In this document: one piece after another, positions 3,733 to 34,422 of the stretch
How the letters are laid out: each line of letters opens with the position of its first letter
Numbering within the stretch: the stretch's first letter is position 1
NCBI GenBank assembly: GCA_000934665.2
Contig: KZ538797.1
Location: 1 to 46,859, forward strand
Direction: 5' to 3'
DNA from: Catajapyx aquilonaris
Taxonomy: Eukaryota
Length of the DNA stretch: 46,859 nt
Position numbers and translations under genes: made by a program
Notes under the pieces: generated by a model
The model's input: the letters and a program-made list of their open reading frames with translations, nothing else
Told to the model about the DNA's origin: nothing
Databases searched by the model: none

Positions 3733-5079
3733 CCCTTTGATGACGGAGTTTTTGAAGGATTGCATTACCCGAGGGCCTGAGTTTTTTTCCCCCCTTTTCC
3801 GGAAATTTTATGACCTCGCCGATTTTCTTGAAATTCGGTGCATTGGTAGCCCACCCCAAGGGATGAAAAACGCACCTATAGTTACCTGATCAAAATGACC
3901 TCGTGACCCAATTTTGAGGGGGGCAAGGTCAAATTTCGACCTCACCGGATTTTCTTCAAATTCGGTGCATTGGTAGCCCACACCAAGGGATGAAAAACGC
4001 ACATATAGTTACCTGATAAAAATGACCTCGTGACCCAATTTTGAGGGGGGCAGAGGTCAAATCATAAAATTTCGACCTCACTGATTTTCTTGAGATTCGG
4101 TGCATTGGTAGCCCACCCCAAGGGATGAAAAATGCACATATAGTTACCTGATCAAAATGACCTCGTGACCCAATTCTGATGAGGGCAGAGGTCAAATTCC
4201 AACCTCACCGATTTTCTTGAAATTCGGGGGTTATACCAAGGTTATACACACTTACATTTTTTGCGTACACGCTACTACCCGTCTTAGTGAATCACAAGGG
4301 AGACTTTGCAAGTGCCAGTCACAAATTTTCTTGAAATTCGGCGCATTGACATAGGTCCCCTCCAATATGGGTCACAGGGTCATGTCGAGCAGGGAACTAT
4401 AAGTGGGTTTGTCATCCCTTGGTGTGGGCTACTAATGCACCGAATTTGAAGATAATCGGCGAGGTCGGAATTTTATGATTTGACGTCTGCCCCACTCAAA
4501 ATTGGGTCACAGGGTCACTTTCATCATGTCACTATAGGTGCGTTTTTCATCCCTTGGGGTGGGCTACCAATGCACCGAATTTCAAGAAAATCGGTGATGT
4601 CGAAATTTGACCTCTTCCCCCCTCCAATATGGGTCACAGGGTCATTTCGAGCAGGGAACTATATGTGCGTTTGTCATACCTTGGTGTGGGCTACCAATGG
4701 ACCGAATTTGAAGAAAATCGGTGAGGTCGAAATTTTATGATTTGACCTCTGCCCCCCTCAAAATTGGGTCACGAGGTCATTGTGATCAGGTCACTATAGG
4801 TGCGTTTTTAATCCCTTGGGGTGGGCTACCAATGCACCGAATTTCAAGAAAATCGGTGAGGTCGAAATTTTATGATTTGACCTCTGCCCCCCTCAAAATT
4901 GGGTCACGAGGTCATTTTGATCAGGTAACTATAGGTGCGTTTTTCATCCCTTGAGGTGGGCTACCAATGCAGCGAATTTCAAGAAAATCGGTGAGGTTGA
5001 AATTTTTTGCGTTGAAAAATGATCCAAGTTGGCAGGGCAAATCTTCGGACATCATATGATGCCCGTAGGCAGCAAAGGG
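3733..5079. mobile_element. Non-autonomous piggyBac-like element with two inverted arrays of ~120-135 bp tandem repeats
   Basis: TTAA|CCCTTTG at 3729 and CAAAGGG|TTAA ending 5083; units containing AAATTCGGTGCATTGGTAGCCCAC occur ~3 times (3810-4228) and ~5 times inverted (4350-5005). Confidence 0.7.
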
Positions 5080-17700: not shown

Positions 17701-19991
17701 TCTAACTTCAGAACATTTCGGGACAACTCCAACACAGCCACCTGCATTCCCAGGCACACCCCCAGGTATGGCTTCTGGTTCTCACGACACCATTGGGCTG
17801 CTGCCATCTTGCCTTCAAGACCTCTTGAACCAAAGCCACCTAGTAGAGAAAAGCACAGACCAGGGCAATGATAAAATATCATTCAAGTGCATTTTGTGAG
17901 GAAGAAAAAATTAGCACACATGGTATTTCAAGGTGGAAACTCTCACATGCTGAGGCTCATGGCACATACACATGAAGGACAAAATATTGTCACGATGGAT
18001 GATATTAAAACTGCAACCTTAAAAAAATTGAAATAAAACACAACTAAGGACTTCGCATCCAGTGCTATACACTACATACCTGGAACAATGACTCCCTGTG
18101 CATTGCATAACTGCCTCCAGGCCTCATGGTATGCAACAGGGTCAGTTTTCTGCGTTTCTGGTTCCAGAACCTCTGCAGATATGGAGTTGAGGTTGAGTCG
18201 TAGGTTGGCTGCAAGTGAAGCATGCTGCAATGCCTTGATAACTGATGCATAGGCATCATCCAGGTCAGTGTACTTCCCAACCAGGCCTATTCTGACTTCA
18301 TTGTTGAGTCGATCATGTCTGTCTGCCAAGTCACGCCATTGTGCCATAGCTCTCCGTGGCAATGGGACACAGAAGTTGAGATGCAACCTTTTCTGCAGGA
18401 ATTCCACGGCCCCCTGCTGATGTAGGGCAAGGGGGACTCGGTATATGGAAGTGCAGTCTGCAATGCACATCACTTGGTCTGGTTCTACATGGCAGAAGTT
18501 TGAAATCTTCTCTTGTACAGAGCGATCAACAGGCTTCTCACTACGGCACACTATCAGGTCTGGGCTGAGACCCAAGCCACGCAGCTCACGAACAGATGCC
18601 TGGGTTGGTTTGGTTTTGTGCTCCCCAGTTGCACGAGGCTGGAAAAATGTCAAAAATAATTTTACTTTCTTCATCACTCCCATCACCTTTTTTGCTGACA
18701 TATTGTTGGCATTCAAATAATATACGCAGCATTTTCCTCCTACACCCCTGGATGTTTAATATTGCTTGACTACAATATTATATTGCTGCATCCAGTAGTA
18801 ACAATGGGAATTCAAATAATTAGCACACTGATTTCTTGAGTGTGTGTGGCCATAAGGTGGCAAAACATTATAAGCCTATAATCTCTCATCGTAAAAAAGG
18901 AAAAGTATAGATACCCCAAGCTAAGTTTGAGTTCAAGTGGACAATACAAGTGACACTACATATATTCTCATCATACCCAATAGATTAATTTCAAAAATGT
19001 CGTATTACGCTTCAGAACTTGTTCCTTACCTGAGGAACCAATGACACATGAATATTGCAGAAATTTTCTCTTTTAACACGGAATTGGAATTGTCGGAAAG
19101 CTTCCACAAAAGGCATCCCTTCAATGTCACCAATGGTCCCTCCTTGTTCAATGATACACACCTACAATAAAACATCAAGTGTTATGAAAATGCCAAGAAA
19201 AGTAGTGAGTAAATTAAACCCAACTCCAACAAACCTCCGGTTCCAATCCATCAGGAGTCACTGCTTGCTTGGCTACTCTTTCCACCCAGTCCTGAATTGC
19301 CTTTGTTATGTGGGGCACAACTATAATAAAAACATTCATCACTCTTAACATACTCATAGTTGCAGAATAAGTAAGGCATATTCAATAAGCCTGGAAAGGT
19401 TGGGAGGGGCCTGTAGTTAGCAGCAGTTATGTTGCTAAAAATGGCCGAAGGATTTATTGTACAGCTACTGCAGCTACTGCACGAGGTCCTTGCCCACAAA
19501 CTTGTTTCCATCACCCATTCCCTATACAACACACATGCATAATGTAACTCTTCATTACCTTGCACTGTCTTCCCAAGAAAATCTCCTTTCCTCTCACGAT
19601 TGATCACTTGCTGGTAAATTTTTCCTGTGGTAATATTATTATCTGAATGCAGGGTGACATCCAAGAAACGTTCATAATTTCCGAGATCCAGATCAACTTC
19701 ACCTCCATCCGCAAGGACAAACACTTCACCTAAAACATTTTCACACCCAGTCAATTTCTAGTCTTCAAAAAATTCCAGTCACAATTACATTATACTCTCA
19801 ATTAATTCTAGCCACACCATCTTACCATGCTCGTAGGGAGAGAAAGTCCCAGCATCAATGTTGATGTAAGGATCAATCTTTATGGAGGTAACTCTCAGAC
19901 CGCAGCACTTCAGAATGGTGCCCAGAGAGCTGGCAATGACTCCTTTCCCAATACCACTGATCACACCACCAGTCACAAGGATGTACTTCAT
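14796..19991 (-). CDS. CTPS1: CTP synthase, 597 aa
   Basis: Exons 19991-19826, 19729-19559, 19320-19235, 19161-19030, 18638-18080, 17839-17558, 17172-16849, 14869-14796; [43 protein letters not shown] on minus strand ~14639-14644. Confidence 0.96.
15107..15217. mobile_element. 111-bp hAT-type MITE in the last CTPS intron
   Basis: TIRs CAGGGATGGAAAAAG / CTTTTTCCATCCCTG; 8-bp TSD AGTAAAAC at 15099-15106 and 15218-15225. Confidence 0.88.
15385..16764. mobile_element. Non-autonomous TIR element with nested insertions
   Basis: TIRs CAGGGCTGGAACT / AGTTCCAGCCCTG; CAACTT duplicated on both flanks; subterminal TTACTGAC/TTACGGA repeats. Confidence 0.72.
15515..15869 (+). mobile_element. Full-length tRNA-derived SINE with (ATT)n tail
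   Basis: Same head/core as 343-732; TSD TATACACAAAAA at 15503-15514 and 15870-15881. Confidence 0.9.
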
Positions 19992-20939
19992 GGCTCCAGA
20001 ATTGACTATGAGGATGTAGTAGCAACTAGCCTTTTTCTAGAGAGGAAACAGACGGAACATTAGTTTTTCCTACTCATATATCTGCCAAGATGAAACATAA
20101 GTTTGACCATAGAATGACAAGTAAACAGATATGGATGACACAGGATGACATAAGATCAGTATCCACTTTTGTTTGAATTACTCATGTAAGATAACAGCTT
20201 ACGTACTCAAGAAGCAGGCAATAAGTCAGACGTGACTTCACAGCACTAATAATGAATTTCGTCTACAAATGCTCTGCTTTACAACCCCATTACTGACAAT
20301 CATGGTACTCGACATACTACAAGTAATAAATATTTTTCCATTAGAAATCATAAAAAATGCCAGTTTTTCCACATGAGTATAAGCAAAAGATATAAACCAC
20401 AAGCCACATGGAAGATGACCTGATTGGGAAATGAGGGAATCTTTAATTGGAAAATCCTATCATGCGAAAATTCTCTGCAGTAGATGACCCTTGTGCTACA
20501 GGCAGGTTTCACCGTATTAATCTTGCACAATTTAGGACCTATGCTAAGAACACAGTGCCATCCAAATTGTGGTAAAAGATTGCCACATGGGTGACAATCC
20601 CTGGAAAAACTTATTCTGCAGGTATCTAATTCCAATGACCTAACATCGATTGCCTTACATGCGAAGGCATCCTTCAGAGGCATTGTCCAGCAGAATCAAA
20701 GTTCATGTAGCCGCTTAACTTTGACCCCCTGTGAATATCTGAATCAGCCTATCGTATTTTGAGATAAGCATCCTCCTGTAGGACACAAAAAAAATCTGAC
20801 TAAGGCAGAGTCCAAGAAATTTGTGTGACCCTTTGGCATTAAATATTTCCCTCCATCAAGGCACCATTCCTCTCAATCATAAAAAATGGGCCGCTGTGTT
20901 GGCCAGGTCACAAATGCACAGACTGCGGGTCACTCGTGT

Positions 20940-21545: not shown

Positions 21546-24500
21546 ATGTTGTACCGGTCCCTGTTGGATGTGGCCAAGACCAACCCCTTCGGCGGACCCA
21601 TCCACGCCGCCTCCTGCGAGCCAGGACCTAACAATGCAGCGGTGCCCACCGTGGTCGAGCCAGGCAAGCTGGTCCAGGGGAGGAGCATACAGGCCGCGGC
21701 GCCATCAGGTCAGTTGGTCACCATGGCCAGAAAAGGCCCTTGGGAGAAAGAGACAGAGAGGGGCTGGCTGGGTCTGTGAGGGATTGGATTATGTAATCGC
21801 CACACGCGAATTGCTTAACTTTGGCCGTGAGGTGGATGCGTGCCAGTGTGGTTTTGACGTGAAGGGGAAGAGGCAGCAGGGGGATGCATTAATGTGGCAC
21901 CAATTAGGATGCAACCCTCCAATGAATGTTGCTTGCTGGGGAGGTAGCAGAGGTGTAGGAGGATGTGAACCAGTGGAGGGAAAATTGCATGGGGCAGGAG
22001 CTGTGACTTGTATGGGAGTTTGTGGCTTGAAAAATGGGGTGCATAAAAATATAACCATTCATTTAACCCTGGTATGGTGACATATGGTCTTTTAGGCCAC
22101 CAAGAATTAAAAAGCATGGCAATGAGTGACCCTGAAAAACTCCATGTATTCCTTCATCATTTCACAGATTAAATCCAGTTTCATAATTTTCACACCCACC
22201 AAAATGTAGATAATTCGTTGTTTTTTGACCCATGGTCTCGTAATTGTCATTATCTAAGTGCTGATACGCTGTAAAGGAAGCTTTATTATTGTGAACTGTT
22301 GCCATTTTAGACTTTTTCTCATCGGAAAAAGTCTTATAAAACGGCTCTGTCTGTCTGTACATGGACAGGTATCAGGGCCTAAACCAGTGGTTCCCAACCT
22401 TGACCGGGTCACGACTTGGTTGCAGATGGGTAGCAGGGTACAGAATCACGAATATGTGAATGCATGGGCCACGGAGGAACGGGTGGGGGGTATGCATGTG
22501 ATTGGGGGATGGGCATCATCATTGGCTATAAGTCCAAAGCGATTAAAAATGTGTTTTTTAAATATATAAAAGTCCAGGTTTTTTATATATCAAAACCCTC
22601 GCGATGCTAGCATTTTTCTAGACCAGTGTCCTGCAGTGCCTACCATATTTTTAATCACTTTGGACTTATAGCCGATGATGATGCCCATCCCCCAATCATA
22701 TGCATACCCCCCACCCGTTCCTCTGTGGCCTGTGCATTCACATATCTGTGATTCCGTACCATGATACCCATCTGCAATCCCACCTTTCCTTTGCATTGGC
22801 TGGGAAATATGCATTTGCCCTTCTCAATTACCAATACTTTTTGTACCGTATATTTAAAACCGCCAATTATTGTATGAACAGAAAGTCACAACCTTTACCG
22901 CTTCTACTCGCATGCACTGGCACATATGTATCTAAATGATATCCACACTTTCCGACCTCATTCTTTTACTATCCGACGACCATAAGAGTGAACCTTTTTG
23001 GATATGCATACGCCCGAAGGGTCGGTGAGCCTCCCGAAAGTAGTGCCGAACATGCCGGGCCCTACCGCTCCTCACAACAAAATGTGCAGTTTGTGTAGTG
23101 CTCCACCTACCGTACGGGGTGCCCATGACAATTAGGCAGTCGAATTACATGTACCAGCACTGTTTCTTCGAGAAAGCCAGAGATACCACTAATACAGTAT
23201 ACAGCATATTAAGAGTTGCCAATGAAATTTGAAAATTAATTTATAGCTCACTGTATTTCAACTAATCTACACCTTGAGGAGGGGACTAGGTGTCATTGGG
23301 GCACAGGAACACAAGAGTGTCGCCAGCTGTGCTCAGGATTGAATTTATGCCAAACTGCACTGGTTCTTGGCCAAAATTTGGCAACAGATTGTTTAAGGAA
23401 GCCAACTAGGGAGGTCAAGGCAGGCCAAAAATATCGCACTGCTACAAACCCCCTTGCTTTAACCCTACTGTAGGTATACCGGAAGTAATTTATTGTGTTA
23501 AGTACAAAATAAGTACCGGTATTTGTTGAATATCTTCATGCTGTTTCTTGGGCTTGAGATAGCTTATTGAAGCATTTGCTGCTATTGAACCATGTCTGAT
23601 TGGACCATCTTTGTAGTCAAGTAGTAAACTGCCAAGTAAATTTAAGAAAATTGTTGAAAATAGCGTAGGGGATTTTTGCGGTAACAAACCAAAGTTCAGA
23701 CGATTTAAAAAAACTTTCATTGTGATTTTCCATGCTTGTGGAAAACCTTTGGGGATTCTGTTTTTTTCTATGGAGTTCCAGGTACAGAGGGCAGCATTTT
23801 GCCTAAAATCCGACACAAATATATCATTCGAAAGCGCCAGAGGAGCGAGAACAAACACTGTAATGAACCAAACTTTTGAGGACACGCATTTCAGCACCGG
23901 GTTGCACTGCGTAATAACTCTGGGAATTCTAAGTGGTTGCGATGGCAGTGTAGAGATGCTCTAGTGAAGAAAAGTGTGAGGAATCCATTGGTTACCTTTC
24001 CATACCGATATCTGCTTTTCTTTGCATCGTAGGGCAACAAAACTCTCGGTAATGAACCAAGAAAAAAAGTAACGAACCTAGGTGTGTGATTTACCGCCAT
24101 TCAGAACCTATGCAAGGGTAGTATTTGTGAGCTGTTTTACCTGAGGATGTACATAATTAAAACGGGACACATCCAGGGCACCTGACCAGTCATCAAAGTC
24201 TTTGGGGAACAGGGTGACACAGCCACATCATTGAAGTTATGAACTGACTAGAGGGGAAAAGATTTTAATAAATGTTTATTCAAATATTTATAACAGTTAT
24301 TACAATTCGACTTGTAAGTACAAAAATTATCTCTGGCAGAGAAAGACAAGGAATTTCATCAGTACTATAGACACTATTTTGTCTATTTTGGGTTTTCACG
24401 ACTTTCATGACCCTTTTGCCTTTTTTGGGATAGTTTGTGAACTTTTTGAAGAAATTTCGGCACTTTTTGGGCCTATTCAGGACCTATTCCTGTGGAGGCA

Positions 24501-27273
24501 TGTTTGTTTTTTGAGGAGTATTTTTTGTGCTCCTGAAAGTACCTAAAGAGTTCAGAGTAATTAGTTTCGCCAATGAAAATCTAGAAAAATATTTGCTAAC
24601 ATACTGTGCAAGTAGAAATGGGCTATAACCTATAAGCGGTAGAGTTCAGAGCAAGAGATATTTGGTTGCACTTTATCTTTTGCCTCAGTTTTGTGATTTT
24701 GTCAGTTTATTGTTGTTATTCGGTTTTTGTTACGGTTTGTGACTTATATTTATACACTAGGTCTATAAAACTTGTCTGGCCTTTTAATATTCTGTAACAT
24801 TATCCTCCATATGCTCGCAAAAGTAAAATTATTGTGCCTATTTGAGGTTTTTTCGTGCCTATTTAAGTGCCTATTTCAGGCGTTTTTAATGCTTAATAAT
24901 CTGGACTGTAAATATTACCAATCAAATTGCATTTACCAAATCATGCATACAGTTATTGGTCAGGAAATATTTAAAATGGAATGGACTGCTGCTTCAGGAT
25001 TAATAACCCCACCTTCCCCCCTTTTTTTCCAGAGGGAAGTAGCTGCGAATTTGGATCCTTGAAATACTATGCCCTCTGTGGATTTGGTGGAATCCTGTCT
25101 TGTGGTATCACCCACACAGCTTTGGTGCCCCTTGACTTGGTCAAGTGCCGCATTCAGGTGAACCCAGACAAGTACAAGTCCATTGTGAATGGGTTCAAGG
25201 TATCGATAAAGGAGGAGGGAGCCCGCAGCTTGCTGAAAGGATGGGCCCCAACCGCTATTGGCTACTCCATGCAGGGGCTGGGCAAGTTTGGATTTTATGA
25301 AGTGTTTAAAATCCTTTATTCTGGAATGCTTGGAGAGGAGAACACATACCTCTGGCGTACCTCCCTCTACCTCGCTGCCTCGGCTTCGGCTGAGTTCTTT
25401 GCCGACATTGCCCTCTGCCCCATGGAAGCAGTCAAAGTGCGGATCCAGACCCAGCCAGGGTTTGCCTCTACCCTCAGAGAGGCTGCTCCACTCATCATGA
25501 GGACTGAAGGGTTCAATGGATTTTACAAGGGGCTGGTCCCACTGTGGATGAGGCAGATCCCATACACCATGATGAAGTTTGCCTGCTTTGAGCGTACTGT
25601 TGAACTGCTCTACAAGTGAGTGCACCATTGCTTCAGTGCCGCTTAAGTGTAGTGTTTTAAATTTGTGTTAATGGTACTGATAATGATATTTGCAGTTTCC
25701 TTTATGCTTGTTGATTTTGCTGGAACTTATGATTAGTATACAGTAGATTGAACAAAATAATATTATCTACATATTGCTGTAGTAGGAGGATTTTAGGTCT
25801 GGTTTTAGGTCAGAAGTAACTAGAGTACTGAAGAGCATTTAAGCCTACCCAGTTTTTAAAAACCAACTGTAATGCCAGACTATACAGTATACTACAAATG
25901 CTGCAATGTTGCAGGTTTTATTTTTGTTTTGTGACATGTCAGTTAGAACCTGCTGCCATAGTGCCCGGATATGAATACAATACAATCCTGGTGGCATCCT
26001 TCCTGATAGTGCCGAGTGTAGGTCATGGAACTTCGTATCATTATCATAAACTATTGCAATTCAATACAGTCCATGACACATGAGTCCCAGATTACTGAAG
26101 TTGCAGGTAATTATCTGTAACGCATGCTCCTTAGATCCGCTCTCAGGTCCATTGGGAGTGAATGAGTCATAAGCATGCAAGATCAATACACCTCCATTAT
26201 TTGACCATACATGTGCAGATTTACTTCAATGGGATGGTGCATTGCTTGAATGGAATGTGACGTTTTGTTGCATTCAGTTTAAGCACAGCGTCGTACAACT
26301 GGAGTTAGACATTTCATTAAGAACTGAGCATTTGTTTGGTTTTTAGGAATGTCACTTGTTTCTGCATATGGCTAGTCAACAATGGGGACATGTGCATTAA
26401 TATAAATGGCTGTTCCTCTACCCAACCTTTTGTGCTGTGTTGTAATTAGACTATGTTTTACAGGCATGTAGTTCCAAAGCCTCGTGCTGACTGCTCAAAG
26501 GCTGAGCAGTTGGTGGTGACCTTCGCTGCTGGTTACATTGCTGGTGTGTTCTGCGCCATTGTGTCCCATCCAGCTGACACTGTTGTTTCCAAGCTTAACC
26601 AAGACAGTGGGTCCACTGCTGTTCAGGTGGCCAAGAAACTGGGCTTTGCAGGTTAGTAATTTGATGATTTAGTTGTCTAGTAAATTTTGATCATTATTGA
26701 AGTGAAATCGCTATTACAGCGAATATTATTAGGGGATGCTTTATGCATATTACGACAAACTCGGTGGAAAAAATTCTGTAATTGCATTCAAGTGAGCGCA
26801 CCATGACATGTCATAGGGTTTGATATCTGCTACGGCTTACATTAGTTGCACTGCAGAAGTGGAAACTAATTTTGTTGGTTCCTTACAATTTCTATGTATT
26901 TGATCTCTCCTTCAGGAGTTACCTTTCAGAAAAATTGATTCTTTCTCAATTAAGATTTCTTGCGAACTTACCCAAGAGTAATATCCATTGAAAGTGGTGT
27001 ACCACATTTCTTGACAGCTCATTGTTTGGGGTTTATTAATTTTTAGGTCCCCTGCTCCATTTTCTTAAAAATGTGCTTGTGTTAAAACAATGATTTCTTT
27101 ACTTCTCAGGACTGTGGAAGGGCCTCACCCCGAGGATCATCATGATTGGTACTCTGACTGCCCTTCAGTGGTTCATTTATGATGCAGTGAAGGTGTGGCT
27201 GGGTATACCTCGCCCACCACCCCCCGAAATGCCGGAGTCGCTGAAAAAGAAGCTAGCTGAGAAGCAGAAGTAG
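21546..27273 (+). CDS. SLC25A3: Mitochondrial phosphate (copper) carrier, copy 1, 365 aa
   Basis: Exons 21546-21708, 25033-25615, 26464-26651, 27110-27273; presequence [61 protein letters not shown]. Confidence 0.96.
22418..22779. mobile_element. Fold-back / MITE with ~130-bp inverted arms in a PiC copy 1 intron
   Basis: 22418-22550 is the near-perfect reverse complement of 22646-22779. Confidence 0.85.
26121..26314 (+). ncRNA. SNORA53: Box H/ACA snoRNA, SNORA53-like, predicted guide for a 28S helix-69 pseudouridine
   Basis: Hairpin GCATGC...GCATGC, H box AGATCA (26180-26185), hairpin CTCCA...TGGAG, ACA at 26309-26311 followed by TTT; pocket CCTTAG / GAGTCATA complementary to 28S UAUGACUC-UC-UUAAGG; vertebrate SNORA53 is hosted in SLC25A3. 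Confidence 0.85.
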
Positions 27274-30183: not shown

Positions 30184-33100
30184 ATGTTGTACCGGTCCCT
30201 GTTGGATGCGGCCAAGACCAACCCCTTCGGCGGCCCCATCCGCGCCGCCTCCTGCGAGCCAGGACCTAACAATGCAGCGGTGCCCACCGTGGTCGAGCCA
30301 GGGAGCAAGTTGGTCCAGGGGAGGCGCATACAGGCCGCGGCCGCGGCAGGGAAGCCCGCGGCGCCATCAGGTCAGTTGGTCACCATGGCCTGGAAGGCTT
30401 CACTGGCCCTTTGGGTTAACTCATAAAGGGTTCGAGGCATGAGCGTAGAGTTTAGCATGTAAAAATGTTGTACGCAACATGCTAGCGACATGCTAGCTCC
30501 TCAACTAAACCGTTTAAGTACCAGTACGTAAAAAACATGTCTCCTCATGTTTTATATGGGTCGCTGATTTCGATTTTTAGGTTATTTTGAACCTGGACCT
30601 ACAGGGTGTACCATGAAAGACCATCGAATTTTAGAACTTGTAGTATCTACATTATACAGTATGTACGGATAGGCTAAAATAATATTTTCCAATGTGTTGG
30701 AGAACACTGATTTTGATTTTTAGGCTACATCGAACCCGGACCAACACCTTGTACCAACAACACCATAAAATTTGGGAGCGTATGAAATAAATTGGCAGTT
30801 GAAAATGATGTTTCTGTACAAAACCGCAGTTGCTGTTTTAAATTATGTAGTATTTTGTTATGTAGGCACTCAAAAATTTAGGAAACACACTGTGCTTCTG
30901 AAAAAGAGTAGAAGTTATTAATTCATGACCTTTGAAATTCAGTTTAGGACATAAACTGAACCTCCTTTGAATGCATCTCTCAGGTGTTTTAACCCTGGAA
31001 CCGTGCCTGCAAGTATTACGGCAACCGTGCCGTGGGGTCTTTTCGGACCCCACCATATTTTAATTTTTATTAAATATTATATAATACTTTTCAATGTATT
31101 GACTATATACAATCATTCGTTGAACAATGTCTAAAAGGATCGCTAATTCAAAATAAACCTGCACTTCCTGTTATATACTTTATAATTGATATTAAGGAGG
31201 TTGGCCTAGCATTGCCTTTCAACCTCCAAGGATAGGGAAGGAAGGGAGCGGCTGTGACCTATAATACGGAAGCGACCCCGGAATTATCCTAGAAAGACCG
31301 TGGAAAACCACAGAAAACCACGGTCAGGGTTGCCGGCCCCGGGATTCGAACCCAGGACCTCCCGATTAGCAGTCGGACGCCCTATCCACTATGCCAACCT
31401 GCTTCGGTTCCTGTTATATACTGTAAGAAAATCTCAAAAGTTCATTGTAATTATCATTTTAATGCATTTTTTTCCTTGGGGTCCAAAAAGACCCCATGGC
31501 ACGGTTCCAGGGTTAATTTCTAAAATTGCGTTGGATTATGATTTTCTAGTTACAGTACTCCCTGGTTGTCATCATAACAGCAATTTCTTGGTTGGGCCAC
31601 ATTTAGCTGCTTCCGCAGGATAGGGTTTATCATACGAATACCAAAAATATCAAGTTATTTTTAAAAATTTATTTCATGAAAATTAAAAATAATTATTAGT
31701 ACATAAAGAAATTATGTAATTCTTCTTGTAACCCTCTCAATTAATTAAGGACATTATTTGCAATAATTTATACCATTTATCCGACAAGTTATTAAATGCA
31801 ACAGTGTTTCGTAATATCCTGTAGGTCTTGGTTCAAAATAACCTTGATATCAAAATTAGAGACCGCAAAAGCATCAGAAAATGTTATTTGCACCTACTTG
31901 TAGTGTTTTTTTCGAGTTTTTTTTCTAGAAGTTTTTAAATTCCATGGCGAATGTTTGGTACACCCTGTAGGTCCCTGTCCAGGTTTAAAATAACCTAAAA
32001 ATCGAAATCAGCGACCCCTAAAACATGGGGATCAAACACACTATGTGACGCCTCTAACTGTCTGTTAACATTGATAATTTCAAAATACCATGTGACCTGG
32101 GGGGGGGGGGGGGGGGGGGGGNAGGCTGTGTGTCAAAAAATCGGTTTCACATGGTATTTGTACGTCATGTAAATGTGATAACAAATGTGGAAGTCCAGAA
32201 ACAAGGTGTGTGGTGGTGTGGTGTGTTATGTTCATATAAATATACAGTGTATATCGACTTTTCCAAACGTCAGTGTGGTATGCATGATAAGGCTTATTTT
32301 GTTCAAAAATTCCCACTTAAATTACATTTACCAAATCATGCATAAGCTACAGTCAATGATCAGGAAATATTTATAATGGAATGGACTGCTGCTACAGGAT
32401 TAATAACCCCAACTGCCCCTTTTTTCCAGAGGTATATAGCTGCGAATTTGGATCCATGAAATACTATGCCCTCTGTAGCTTTGGTGGAAGCCTGGCTTGC
32501 GGTATCACCCACACAGCTGTTGTGCCCCTTGACATGGTCAAGTGCCGCATTCAGGTGGACCCAGACAAGTACAAATCCATTGTGAATGGGTTCAAGGTAT
32601 CGATAAAGGACGAGGGAGCCCGCAGCTTGCTGAAAGGATGGGCCCCAACCGCGATTGGCTACTCAATGCAGGGGCTGGGCAAGTTTGGATTTTATGAAGT
32701 TTTTAAAATCCTTTATGCTGGAATGCTTGGAGACGAGAACGCATACCTCTGGCGTACCTCCCTCTACCTCGCCGCCTCGGCTTCGGCTGAGTTCTTTGCC
32801 GACATTGCCCTCTGCCCCATGGAAGCAGTCAAAGTGCGGATCCAGACCCAGCCAGGGTTTGCCTCTACCCTCAGAGAGGCTGCTCCACTCATCATGAGGA
32901 CCGAAGGGATCAATGGATTTTACAAGGGGCTGGTCCCACTGTGGATGAGGCAGATCCCATACACCATGATGAAATTTGCCTGCTTTGAGCTTACTGTTGA
33001 ACTGCTCTACAAGTGAGTGCACCACTACTTCAGTGCCACTTAAGTGTAGCGTTTTAAATTTGTGTTAATAATACTGATAATTATATTTGCAGTTTCCTTT

Positions 33101-34422
33101 TTATTTCTTGATTTTGCTGTATACAGTAGATTGAACAAAAATTATCTGCATATTGCTGTAATAAAAGGGTTTTTAGGCCAGGATTGAGGTCAGAAGTAAC
33201 GGGTACCCAGTTTTTGAGGACCAACTGTAATGCCAGGCTATACAGCATACTACAAAATAATGCTGCCATAGTGCCCAGATATGAATACAATGCAATCCTG
33301 GTGGCATGCTTGGTGATAGTGCCAAGCGTAGGTCATGCAACTTTATATCATTGTTATAAACTACTACAATTCAATACAGTCCATGACTCATGGGGCCCAG
33401 ATTACTGAAGTTGCAGGTAATTGTCTGTAACGTTTTGTTCGTCTCACGACGTTTCATTAAGAACTGAGCATTTGTTTGGTTTTTAGGAATGCCACTTGTT
33501 TCTGCATATGGCTAGTCAACAATGGGGACATGCACATTAATAAAATTAGCTGTTCCTCCACCCAACCTTTTGTGCTGTGTTGTAATTATATTATGTTTTA
33601 CAGGCATGTAGTTCCAAAGCCTCGTGCTGACTGCTCAAAGCCTGAGCAGTTGGTGGTGACCTTCGCTGCTGGTTACATTGCTGGTGTGTTCTGCGCCATT
33701 GTGTCCCATCCAGCTGACACTGTTGTTTCCAAGCTTAACCAAGAGAGTGGGTCCACTGCCGTTCAGGTGGCCAAAAAACTGGGCTTTGCAGGTTAGTATA
33801 GTTTGCTGATTTAGTTGTCTGCTATCTACTAATTTTGATCACTATTGGAGTGAAAGTGCTATTACAGCCAAAATTATTGGGAGATGCTTTATGGAACAAT
33901 TTACGACATACTCAGTGGAAAAAATTCTGTCTTGGTATTCAAGTTAGCGCAGCATGTCATAGGGTTTGATTTCTGCATCAGTGGCTACTAGTTTCGTTGG
34001 TGCCTTACAATTTTAACGAATTTGATCTCTCCTACTGGAGTTACCTTTCAGACAAATTGATTGCTTTCTCAATTAAGATCTTGCCAACATCCCCAAAGAG
34101 TATAATCAATTGAAAGTGGTGTAAAACTTACCACATTTCTTGCCAGCTCATTGTTTGTGGTTTTATGGTATGGTGGTTTTGTGGTATTTTTGGTTCCCCT
34201 GGTCCATTTTCTTAAACATGTGCTTGTGTTAGCTCAATATGTTTTCTTTATTTCTCAGGACTGTGGAAGGGCCTGGCCCCGAGGATCATCATGATTGGTA
34301 CACTGACTGCCCTTCAGTGGTTCATTTATGATGCAGTGAAGGTGTGGCTGGGTATACCTCGCCCACCACCCCCCGAAATGCCAGAGTCTCTGAAAAAGAA
34401 GCTAGCCATGAAGCAGAAGTAG
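30184..34422 (+). CDS. SLC25A3: Mitochondrial phosphate (copper) carrier, copy 2, 373 aa
   Basis: Exons 30184-30370, 32430-33012, 33604-33791, 34259-34422; frame and GT-AG sites intact. Confidence 0.9.
30993..31512. mobile_element. piggyBac-type MITE (TTAA target)
   Basis: TTAA|CCCTGGAACCGTGCC ... GGCACGGTTCCAGGG|TTAA, with subterminal GGGGTC-N-GACCCC palindromes. Confidence 0.88.
31180..31407 (-). mobile_element. Second family of tRNA-derived SINE, nested in the piggyBac MITE
   Basis: Minus strand: TGGCATAGTGG A-box, GGTTCGAATCCC B-box; 15-bp TSD TTCCTGTTATATACT at 31165-31179 and 31408-31422. Confidence 0.88.

Follow-up and report, generated by a model that had tools for sequence, protein, structure and literature searches.

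Positions 1 to 46,859 of the forward strand of contig KZ538797.1, hereafter the window, contain a segment (26121-26314) that, judging from its sequence, is very probably an intron-encoded box H/ACA small nucleolar RNA (snoRNA), an orthologue of SNORA53, with a predicted dual role in guiding the modification of helix 69 of 28S rRNA. Helix 69 is the central bridge between the ribosomal subunits. By analogy with the human RNA, the candidate would most likely guide pseudouridylation of both uridines in the helix 69 stem. Its sequence, fold, family membership and host gene, which encodes an SLC25A3-type mitochondrial phosphate carrier, are established here, and we infer its expression, processing, 3' end and the modifications themselves by homology. 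The candidate comprises the following parts:

26121..26314, + strand: whole candidate box H/ACA snoRNA, putative SNORA53 orthologue, about 194 nt (RF00563 match on 26121-26223; 3' end putative)
26122..26178, + strand: 5' hairpin with a pseudouridylation pocket between two stems (minimum free energy and centroid structures, model alignment)
26129..26135, + strand: upstream antisense element CCUUAGA, which pairs with 28S UCUUAAGG (model alignment, pair check)
26161..26163, + strand: AAU, at the position of the bulged human 131-CUU-133 (model alignment compared with the text of Jady et al.)
26164..26171, + strand: downstream antisense element GAGUCAUA, which pairs with 28S UAUGACUC (model alignment, pair check)
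26180..26185, + strand: H box AGAUCA (motif inspection, spacing counted on the sequence)
26192..26304, + strand: 3' hairpin domain (folding and inspection; 5' strand of the lower stem aligned to the model)
26309..26311, + strand: preferred ACA box (inspection), followed by TTT to 26314

Match to the SNORA53 family

The Rfam covariance model of SNORA53 (RF00563) aligned to 26121-26223 (+) with a score of 45.4 bits, above the family's gathering score of 38, and with an E-value of 2.2e-7 when the whole window was scanned against 4227 families. An earlier note on this DNA had proposed a SNORA53-like snoRNA here and named the Rfam model as a check, and the proposal is borne out by this score. The match was recovered on a 2.5-kb excerpt (45.4 bits, E 1.2e-8) and is the only snoRNA match in 46.9 kb, the sole other Rfam match in the window being a tRNA.

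The alignment to the model is near letter-perfect over the proximal stem, both strands of the pocket, the H box and the AAUA.ACC that follows it. The distal 5' hairpin lacks about 84 consensus positions, with model segments of 73 and 17 positions reduced to 2 and 4 nt, respectively. The family model backs the 5' half and the hinge only; evidence for the 3' hairpin and for the ACA at 26309 comes from inspection and folding.

When a 231-nt excerpt (26100-26330) was scanned, only a 5'-truncated SNORA53 alignment of 16.3 bits came back, which we regard as an artefact of the excerpt ends, the 2.5-kb excerpt giving 45.4 bits again. Matches to mir-559 and rli61 in the same short excerpt (E 5 and 6.3) were rejected as weak chance matches. 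Covariance-model scanning of very short excerpts may therefore miss a full alignment, as it did for the 45.4-bit match contained in this one.

Architecture and folding

The layout of the box H/ACA class, hairpin-hinge(ANANNA)-hairpin-ACA, is found complete by folding and inspection, with the ACA-ended 3' hairpin standing outside the model alignment. The 5' hairpin consists of a 7-bp proximal stem (26122-26128 with 26172-26178) and a distal stem-loop with 9 bp (26138-26160), and the strands of the internal loop between them read CCUUAGA(UC) at 26129-26137 and (AAU)GAGUCAUA at 26161-26171. AGATCA is the sole ANANNA motif within 26166-26200. Further downstream, the lower stem of the 3' domain, CUCCA/UGGAG, joins 26192-26196 to 26300-26304 and encloses a side stem-loop together with a strong upper hairpin (26233-26292); UUAG, the ACA at 26309-26311 and UUU come after it. 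The earlier note had described a hairpin, an AGATCA hinge, a second hairpin and an ACA plus 3 nt, and every one of these elements was found where it had placed them.

Folding energies were compared with those of 200 dinucleotide shuffles per segment. The 5' hairpin reached a z-score of -2.80 (3/200 shuffles fold equally well), the 3' domain -2.00 (7/200) and the whole 194 nt -1.94 (9/200), and the upper 3' hairpin taken by itself reached -4.67 (0/200).

The ACA at 26309 is probably the one used at the 3' end; CUCCA (26192-26196) falls exactly at the lower stem of the model's 3' hairpin. A second pocket may be present in the 3' domain, formed by 26293-26299 with 26197-26204, the 3' strand of which, GUACAAC, starts 16 nt before the ACA at 26309 in a canonical geometry. 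The human 3' hairpin has no conserved complementarity and no obvious match to rRNA.

Guide pocket and its predicted helix 69 target

Position 1 of the candidate is 26121, and rRNA positions below are those of human 28S (helix 69, 3742-3756). GAGUCAUA is a perfect complement of UAUGACUC, and CCUUAG pairs with UUAAGG through five Watson-Crick pairs and one G-U pair; all the pairs that the earlier note had drawn for this pocket are canonical. Both CCUUAGAUCC (positions 9-18) and GAGUCAU (44-50) have the same letters as the human elements and the Rfam consensus. The H box starts at position 60, with 14 nt from G46 to A59 (G26166-A26179) and 16 nt from G44 to A59 (G26164-A26179). The partner of G26164 is the base that precedes the unpaired UC on its 5' side, and the 16 nt counted from G26164 agree with the distance of about 16 nt from the H box given earlier for that dinucleotide.

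Human SNORA53 (ACA53), encoded in sense in the fifth intron of SLC25A3, was an orphan before the work of Jady et al. (2022, PMC8763049). As reported there, knockout in HAP1 cells removed the 28S pseudouridines psi3747 and psi3749, re-expression restored both, and the 5' pocket serves both sites by switching between two registers that were mapped by mutagenesis. The orphan status given in the earlier note was thus correct until 2022 and is now outdated, the targets having been shown by knockout, rescue and mutagenesis. The note's single-site model fared similarly: the U3749 configuration that it described works, but it is one of two, as the human pocket also guides psi3747.

In the human RNA, C10-U13 and G136-U140 stay paired to A3753-G3756 and A3742-C3746, and for psi3747, 10-CCUUAGA pairs with 3749-UCUUAAGG while U3752 and 131-CUU-133 are bulged (Jady et al. 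2022). U3747 and U3749 lie 14 and 16 nt from the H box, respectively; deletion of A149 abolished psi3747, so that the 14-nt spacing is essential, and the CU132GA mutant produced psi3749 only (PMC8763049). The uridine singled out in the earlier note is human U3749, in the helix 69 stem, and its equation with yeast psi2266 was correct: psi2264 (guided by snR3) corresponds to human psi3747 and psi2266 (guided by snR84) to psi3749, both in that stem (Baudin-Baillieu et al. 2009, PMC2794176).

All the guide nucleotides named for the human RNA (C10-U13, 10-CCUUAGA, G136-U140 and the GA that precedes the latter) are identical in the candidate, as is the UCC that follows CCUUAGA, and the replacement of CUU by AAU is the only difference from human in the pocket region. 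In the U3749 register, UC is unpaired and 8 + 6 pairs form, all of them canonical. The U3747 register has 6 + 7 canonical pairs and one bulged rRNA U, and the distal stem is then closed by U16-A45 and C17-G44, which span a 3-nt bulge. The pairing of GUCAU is the same in both registers, and GA alternates between the target and the distal stem. In a crude nearest-neighbour evaluation that excluded the proximal stem, the U3749 register came to -22.9 kcal/mol, or to -23.8 if two optional distal pairs are left open, and the U3747 register to -17.0 kcal/mol.

In the mechanism that we propose, the RNA would be released from the spliced and debranched intron 2 of the SLC25A3-type carrier pre-mRNA and packaged with dyskerin, Nop10, Nhp2 and Gar1, and its 5' pocket would pair with the descending strand of 28S helix 69. 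In the first register, UC would be left unpaired 16 nt from the H box, selecting the equivalent of U3749 (yeast U2266). In the second, GA 26164-26165 would fold onto UC 26136-26137 with one rRNA U bulged, and the uridine left unpaired, 14 nt from the H box, would be the counterpart of U3747 (yeast U2264). The 58-nt 5' hairpin is compatible with guiding, because human truncations without the distal 5' hairpin still restore both pseudouridines (PMC8763049).

Host gene and its tandem duplicate

The window holds two copies of the carrier gene, of which copy 1 is the host of the snoRNA:

21546-21708, + strand: copy 1, coding exon 1
25033-25615, + strand: copy 1, coding exon 2, ending ..ELLYK with a split last codon
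25616..26463, + strand: host intron 2 of copy 1, GT..AG (spliced model open)
26464-26651, + strand: copy 1, coding exon 3, ending ...GFAG
27110-27273, + strand: copy 1, coding exon 4
30184-30370, + strand: copy 2, coding exon 1
32430-33012, + strand: copy 2, coding exon 2
33013..33603, + strand: homologous intron of copy 2, snoRNA deleted, remnant at about 33430-33451 (pairwise alignment)
33604-33791, + strand: copy 2, coding exon 3
34259-34422, + strand: copy 2, coding exon 4

The candidate sits in intron 2 of copy 1, in the sense orientation, starting 505 nt after the 5' splice site and ending 149 nt before the 3' splice site. The four-exon model of this copy encodes 365 aa with a single terminal stop. 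Its exons carry the Mito_carr domain, and the best named matches in protein searches (3256 proteins at E <=1e-20 among 3831 candidates; 2281 at E <=1e-60 among 3712) are animal SLC25A3 or mitochondrial phosphate carrier proteins, no match exceeding 89% identity. The SLC25A3 intron named as host in the earlier note is upheld by the domain, the matches and the open reading of the spliced model.

The entire four-exon gene has been duplicated in tandem (21546-27273 and 30184-34422, both +). The two copies are 94% identical and encode 365 and 373 aa, respectively; both are open with one terminal stop each, and all introns are GT..AG. Compared with copy 1, copy 2 has a presequence exon longer by 8 residues and a shorter intron 2. 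That intron is about 90% identical to its counterpart in the flanks and is without 26121-26259 and 26277-26306; from within and just past the snoRNA it retains ACGTTTTGTT..TCA and GAC.TTTCATT. No SNORA53 match was found in it at E <=10. Since the flanks are about 90% identical and the snoRNA stretches are deleted, the snoRNA is a discrete unit that predates the duplication. Its loss from copy 2, with copy 1 intact, is the pattern expected of a functional, dosage-redundant gene.

Intron 1 of copy 2 contains, in antisense, a tRNA-like element (31331-31402, - strand) that ARAGORN identifies as tRNA-Ser(GCU); it is only 72 nt long, has no long variable arm and reaches a modest 38.4 bits in Rfam, and it may be a tRNA-derived repeat or pseudogene. 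Intron 1 of copy 1 has no counterpart tRNA call. Runs of N occur at 2683-2699 (17), 29711 (1) and 32122 (1); the single Ns sit in poly-G/poly-C-like stretches near copy 2 and are probably signs of an uncertain assembly. CTP synthase exons (CTP_synth_N, E 1.9e-25) occupy 18075-20036 (-), on the strand opposite to the carrier genes and upstream of them. In a search that yielded 2035 proteins at E <=1e-40 among 7998 scored, their best named matches were insect proteins (65-69% identity, 69% being the top value), and the first named non-arthropod was a hemichordate (65%).

Relatives of the host gene

Eighty related loci were found in metagenome contigs with host exon 2. All but one of them (79) are 1.1-2.3 kb long and resemble spliced transcripts; the remaining locus, L046, covers 6.6 kb of a genomic contig of 23 kb and is the sole genomic relative in the set. 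A regular expression describing the pocket and the H box matched once in the window and in 0/80 related loci, and an Rfam scan of 20 of the 80 (L046 and those judged longest) returned no family at the gathering threshold. L046 carries a GC-rich animal phosphate carrier gene (3947-5051) in which the last intron is kept and there is no intron at LLYK|HVVPKP; because of this, the snoRNA-bearing intron is not universal among relatives.

The earlier note had spoken of an invertebrate host, which is probable, with an arthropod as the best guess, and unproven. In quick maximum-likelihood trees of the carrier (41 rows), both copies fall within arthropods, adjoining myriapod and chelicerate sequences, with an unstarred Shimodaira-Hasegawa-like approximate likelihood ratio (SH-aLRT) support of 81-85, and outside the starred vertebrate (97) and vertebrate-plus-tunicate (98-99) clades. 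Forcing a clade of the window with chordates cost 13.0 log-likelihood units for exon 2 only (p 0.171 in the approximately unbiased, AU, test) and 28.9 units for the full model (p-AU 0.095); the grouping with chordates is disfavoured, and it is not rejected by the AU test. The gene departs further from those of vertebrates in having three introns with the snoRNA in the second, and in the much shorter 5' hairpin of the snoRNA.

Objections and alternative explanations

Several points weigh against a functional, dual-guiding SNORA53 orthologue. A search for RNA sequencing runs covering 26121-26314 listed none, the structure of the candidate rests on one sequence with an orthologue in 0/80 related loci, and the rRNA partner used in the pairings is not the organism's own 28S. 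At the 3' end, the family model is forced onto UGUGCAG-AUUUA and stops at GAUUUA (26223), with no ACA; the preferred ACA at 26309 sits 4 nt past the lower stem, and an alternative ACA occurs at 26295-26297. As for the pocket, the U3749 register is favoured over the U3747 register by about 6 kcal/mol, and comparable stabilities of the registers are said to matter for dual guiding (Jady et al. 2022, PMC8763049). Finally, AAU in place of the bulged CUU can add A26135-U26163 and U26136-A26162 to the U3749 register.

The points concerning the pocket would fit a functional orthologue that guides a single site, the equivalent of U3749 (yeast 2266), with the U3747 equivalent served otherwise or left unmodified. 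The U3749 register is the cofold minimum, the lengthening of the distal stem by the two AAU-derived pairs partly resembles the human CU132GA mutant with its psi3749-only phenotype, and yeast splits the two sites between snR3 and snR84. We nevertheless consider such a restriction unlikely: the two extra pairs bring no net stabilisation (-22.9 kcal/mol with them, -23.8 without), and conservation extends to every nucleotide named for the alternative register and to the exact 14-nt spacing, which is essential for human psi3747. Moreover, the human RNA may share the energy asymmetry and yet is dual; the asymmetry, a figure computed for this RNA only, is by itself no argument against dual guiding, which we continue to prefer.

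It is highly improbable that the locus is a decaying SNORA53 relic that is not processed to a stable ribonucleoprotein, for example through a defective 3' hairpin or ACA, with helix 69 guided from elsewhere. The covariance model finds no ACA-terminated 3' hairpin, and the deletion from copy 2 shows that the element can be lost. Decay, however, would have had to spare the 5' hairpin, the pocket, the H box and the spacing, all of which are intact, and to leave a lower stem followed by an ACA and 3 nt, as well as an upper 3' hairpin that is strongly structured (z -4.67, 0/200). In copy 2, where constraint was lifted, large deletions removed the element rather than leaving a near-intact copy. That an intronic hairpin should resemble SNORA53 by chance is scarcely credible: although a loose expression of pocket and H box is expected some 0.2 times per window of this size, and bare motifs are weak evidence, the covariance-model E-values (2.2e-7 and 1.2e-8), the orthologous host gene, the exact conservation of the spacing and the 0/80 other loci that match the expression all argue against it.

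Age of the pairing between snoRNA and host

We would give an even chance to a broader reading, in which the dual-guide pocket with its 14/16-nt geometry and the location of the snoRNA in an SLC25A3 intron both predate the split of protostomes and deuterostomes, the RNA described here is a natural minimal SNORA53, and one of the two duplicates sufficed. Were this so, both would have persisted for over half a billion years, against the general tendency of snoRNAs to drift from one host gene to another, and the present RNA would be the natural counterpart of the engineered human truncations. If the host is a protostome, retention from the bilaterian (protostome-deuterostome) ancestor would be the parsimonious reading.

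An improbable alternative is that the shared location arose twice, through independent moves into the same broadly expressed host gene. Hoeppner and Poole (2012) describe the locations of intronic snoRNAs as unstable over deep time, under 'constrained drift', with broad expression as the main demand on a host, which would favour such moves. So would the absence of any intron at the site in L046, and the intron position here may differ from that of human intron 5 (between exons 5 and 6). Yet for the same gene to be hit twice among thousands is improbable, and snoRNA-bearing introns are described as positionally conserved and settled early in metazoan evolution (Chorev and Carmel 2013). The intron that carries the snoRNA here precedes the last two coding exons. 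Its human counterpart is presumably placed equally, exon 6 of human SLC25A3 being taken as the penultimate coding exon, and in both species the snoRNA would then occupy the second-to-last candidate position. Retention of an ancestral pairing remains the reading that we favour over independent capture.

Novelty and significance

The target assignment is not new, having been known, as a dual one, since 2022; the family has already been traced to a mollusc, and any Rfam-based annotation pipeline would label this locus. New here are an orthologue, probably from an arthropod, in the same host gene, its 5' hairpin at a minimal 58 nt, and a tandem duplicate of that gene from which the snoRNA has been lost by deletion. 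A literature search found no paper on invertebrate SNORA53 by name, nor one on Mpcp2 with a snoRNA; for SLC25A3 as a snoRNA host, only Jady et al. (2022) concerns SNORA53 among the matches listed. Neither SNORA53 nor SLC25A3 is mentioned in the main text of Hoeppner and Poole (2012) or of the Xenopus snoRNA paper.

The locus adds no new target and no new kind of RNA. It does provide a comparative test of the 'guide RNA acrobatics' pocket, in which the constraint spares only the three bulged bases and the distal hairpin in its entirety. It also offers a host-gene example in which the pairing of snoRNA and host is apparently very old, and a natural experiment in which the host was duplicated and the snoRNA kept in one copy, pointing to loss when redundant. 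In yeast, the pseudouridines of the helix 69 stem influence how well the reading frame is maintained and how often stop codons are read through (Baudin-Baillieu et al. 2009, PMC2794176).

Comparison with known systems

Both the candidate and human SNORA53 are of the box H/ACA class and are encoded in sense in an intron of SLC25A3. The antisense elements CCUUAGA(UCC) and GAGUCAU are the same in both, the proximal stem has 7 bp in each, and the H box stands 14 and 16 nt from the two target registers. AAUA.ACC after that box and a long 3' hairpin in which no match to rRNA is obvious are also shared. In contrast, the 5' hairpin has 58 nt here and about 148 nt in human, the H box reads AGAUCA rather than AGAGAA, the bulge AAU rather than CUU, and A26171, where human has U, can pair with the rRNA. 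The host intron is the second of three here and the fifth in human. With about 194 nt, the candidate is also shorter than the 248-position Rfam model.

The SNORA53 sequences of sea hare, Xenopus and stickleback were found by BLAST, according to the legend of Supplemental Fig. S1 of Jady et al. (PMC8763049), and their guide nucleotides are reported as conserved, which already takes the family to a protostome, the mollusc; the accompanying Outlook (PMC8763051) describes conservation 'from humans to fish'. In distant species, the 5' hairpin is described as a long major hairpin with a side stem-loop (PMC8763049), which, in a comparison by description only, is absent here. Because the distal parts are dispensable for guiding in human, the distal hairpin and its side stem-loop are not treated here as defining SNORA53.

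Yeast snR84 and snR3 guide the same two uridines of the helix 69 stem. They differ in being two RNAs with conventional single-site pockets, snR3 also guiding two other sites, and presumably neither lies in an intron of a phosphate carrier gene. Other dual-guide RNAs are SNORA57, SCARNA8, SCARNA1 and yeast snR82, in which one pocket likewise serves two neighbouring uridines through two registers (PMC8763049). Their targets differ, being 18S rRNA, U2 snRNA and other sites of 25S rRNA, and in SNORA57, SCARNA8 and SCARNA1 the dual loop lies in the 3' hairpin, whereas the dual pocket predicted here, like that of human SNORA53, lies in the 5' hairpin.

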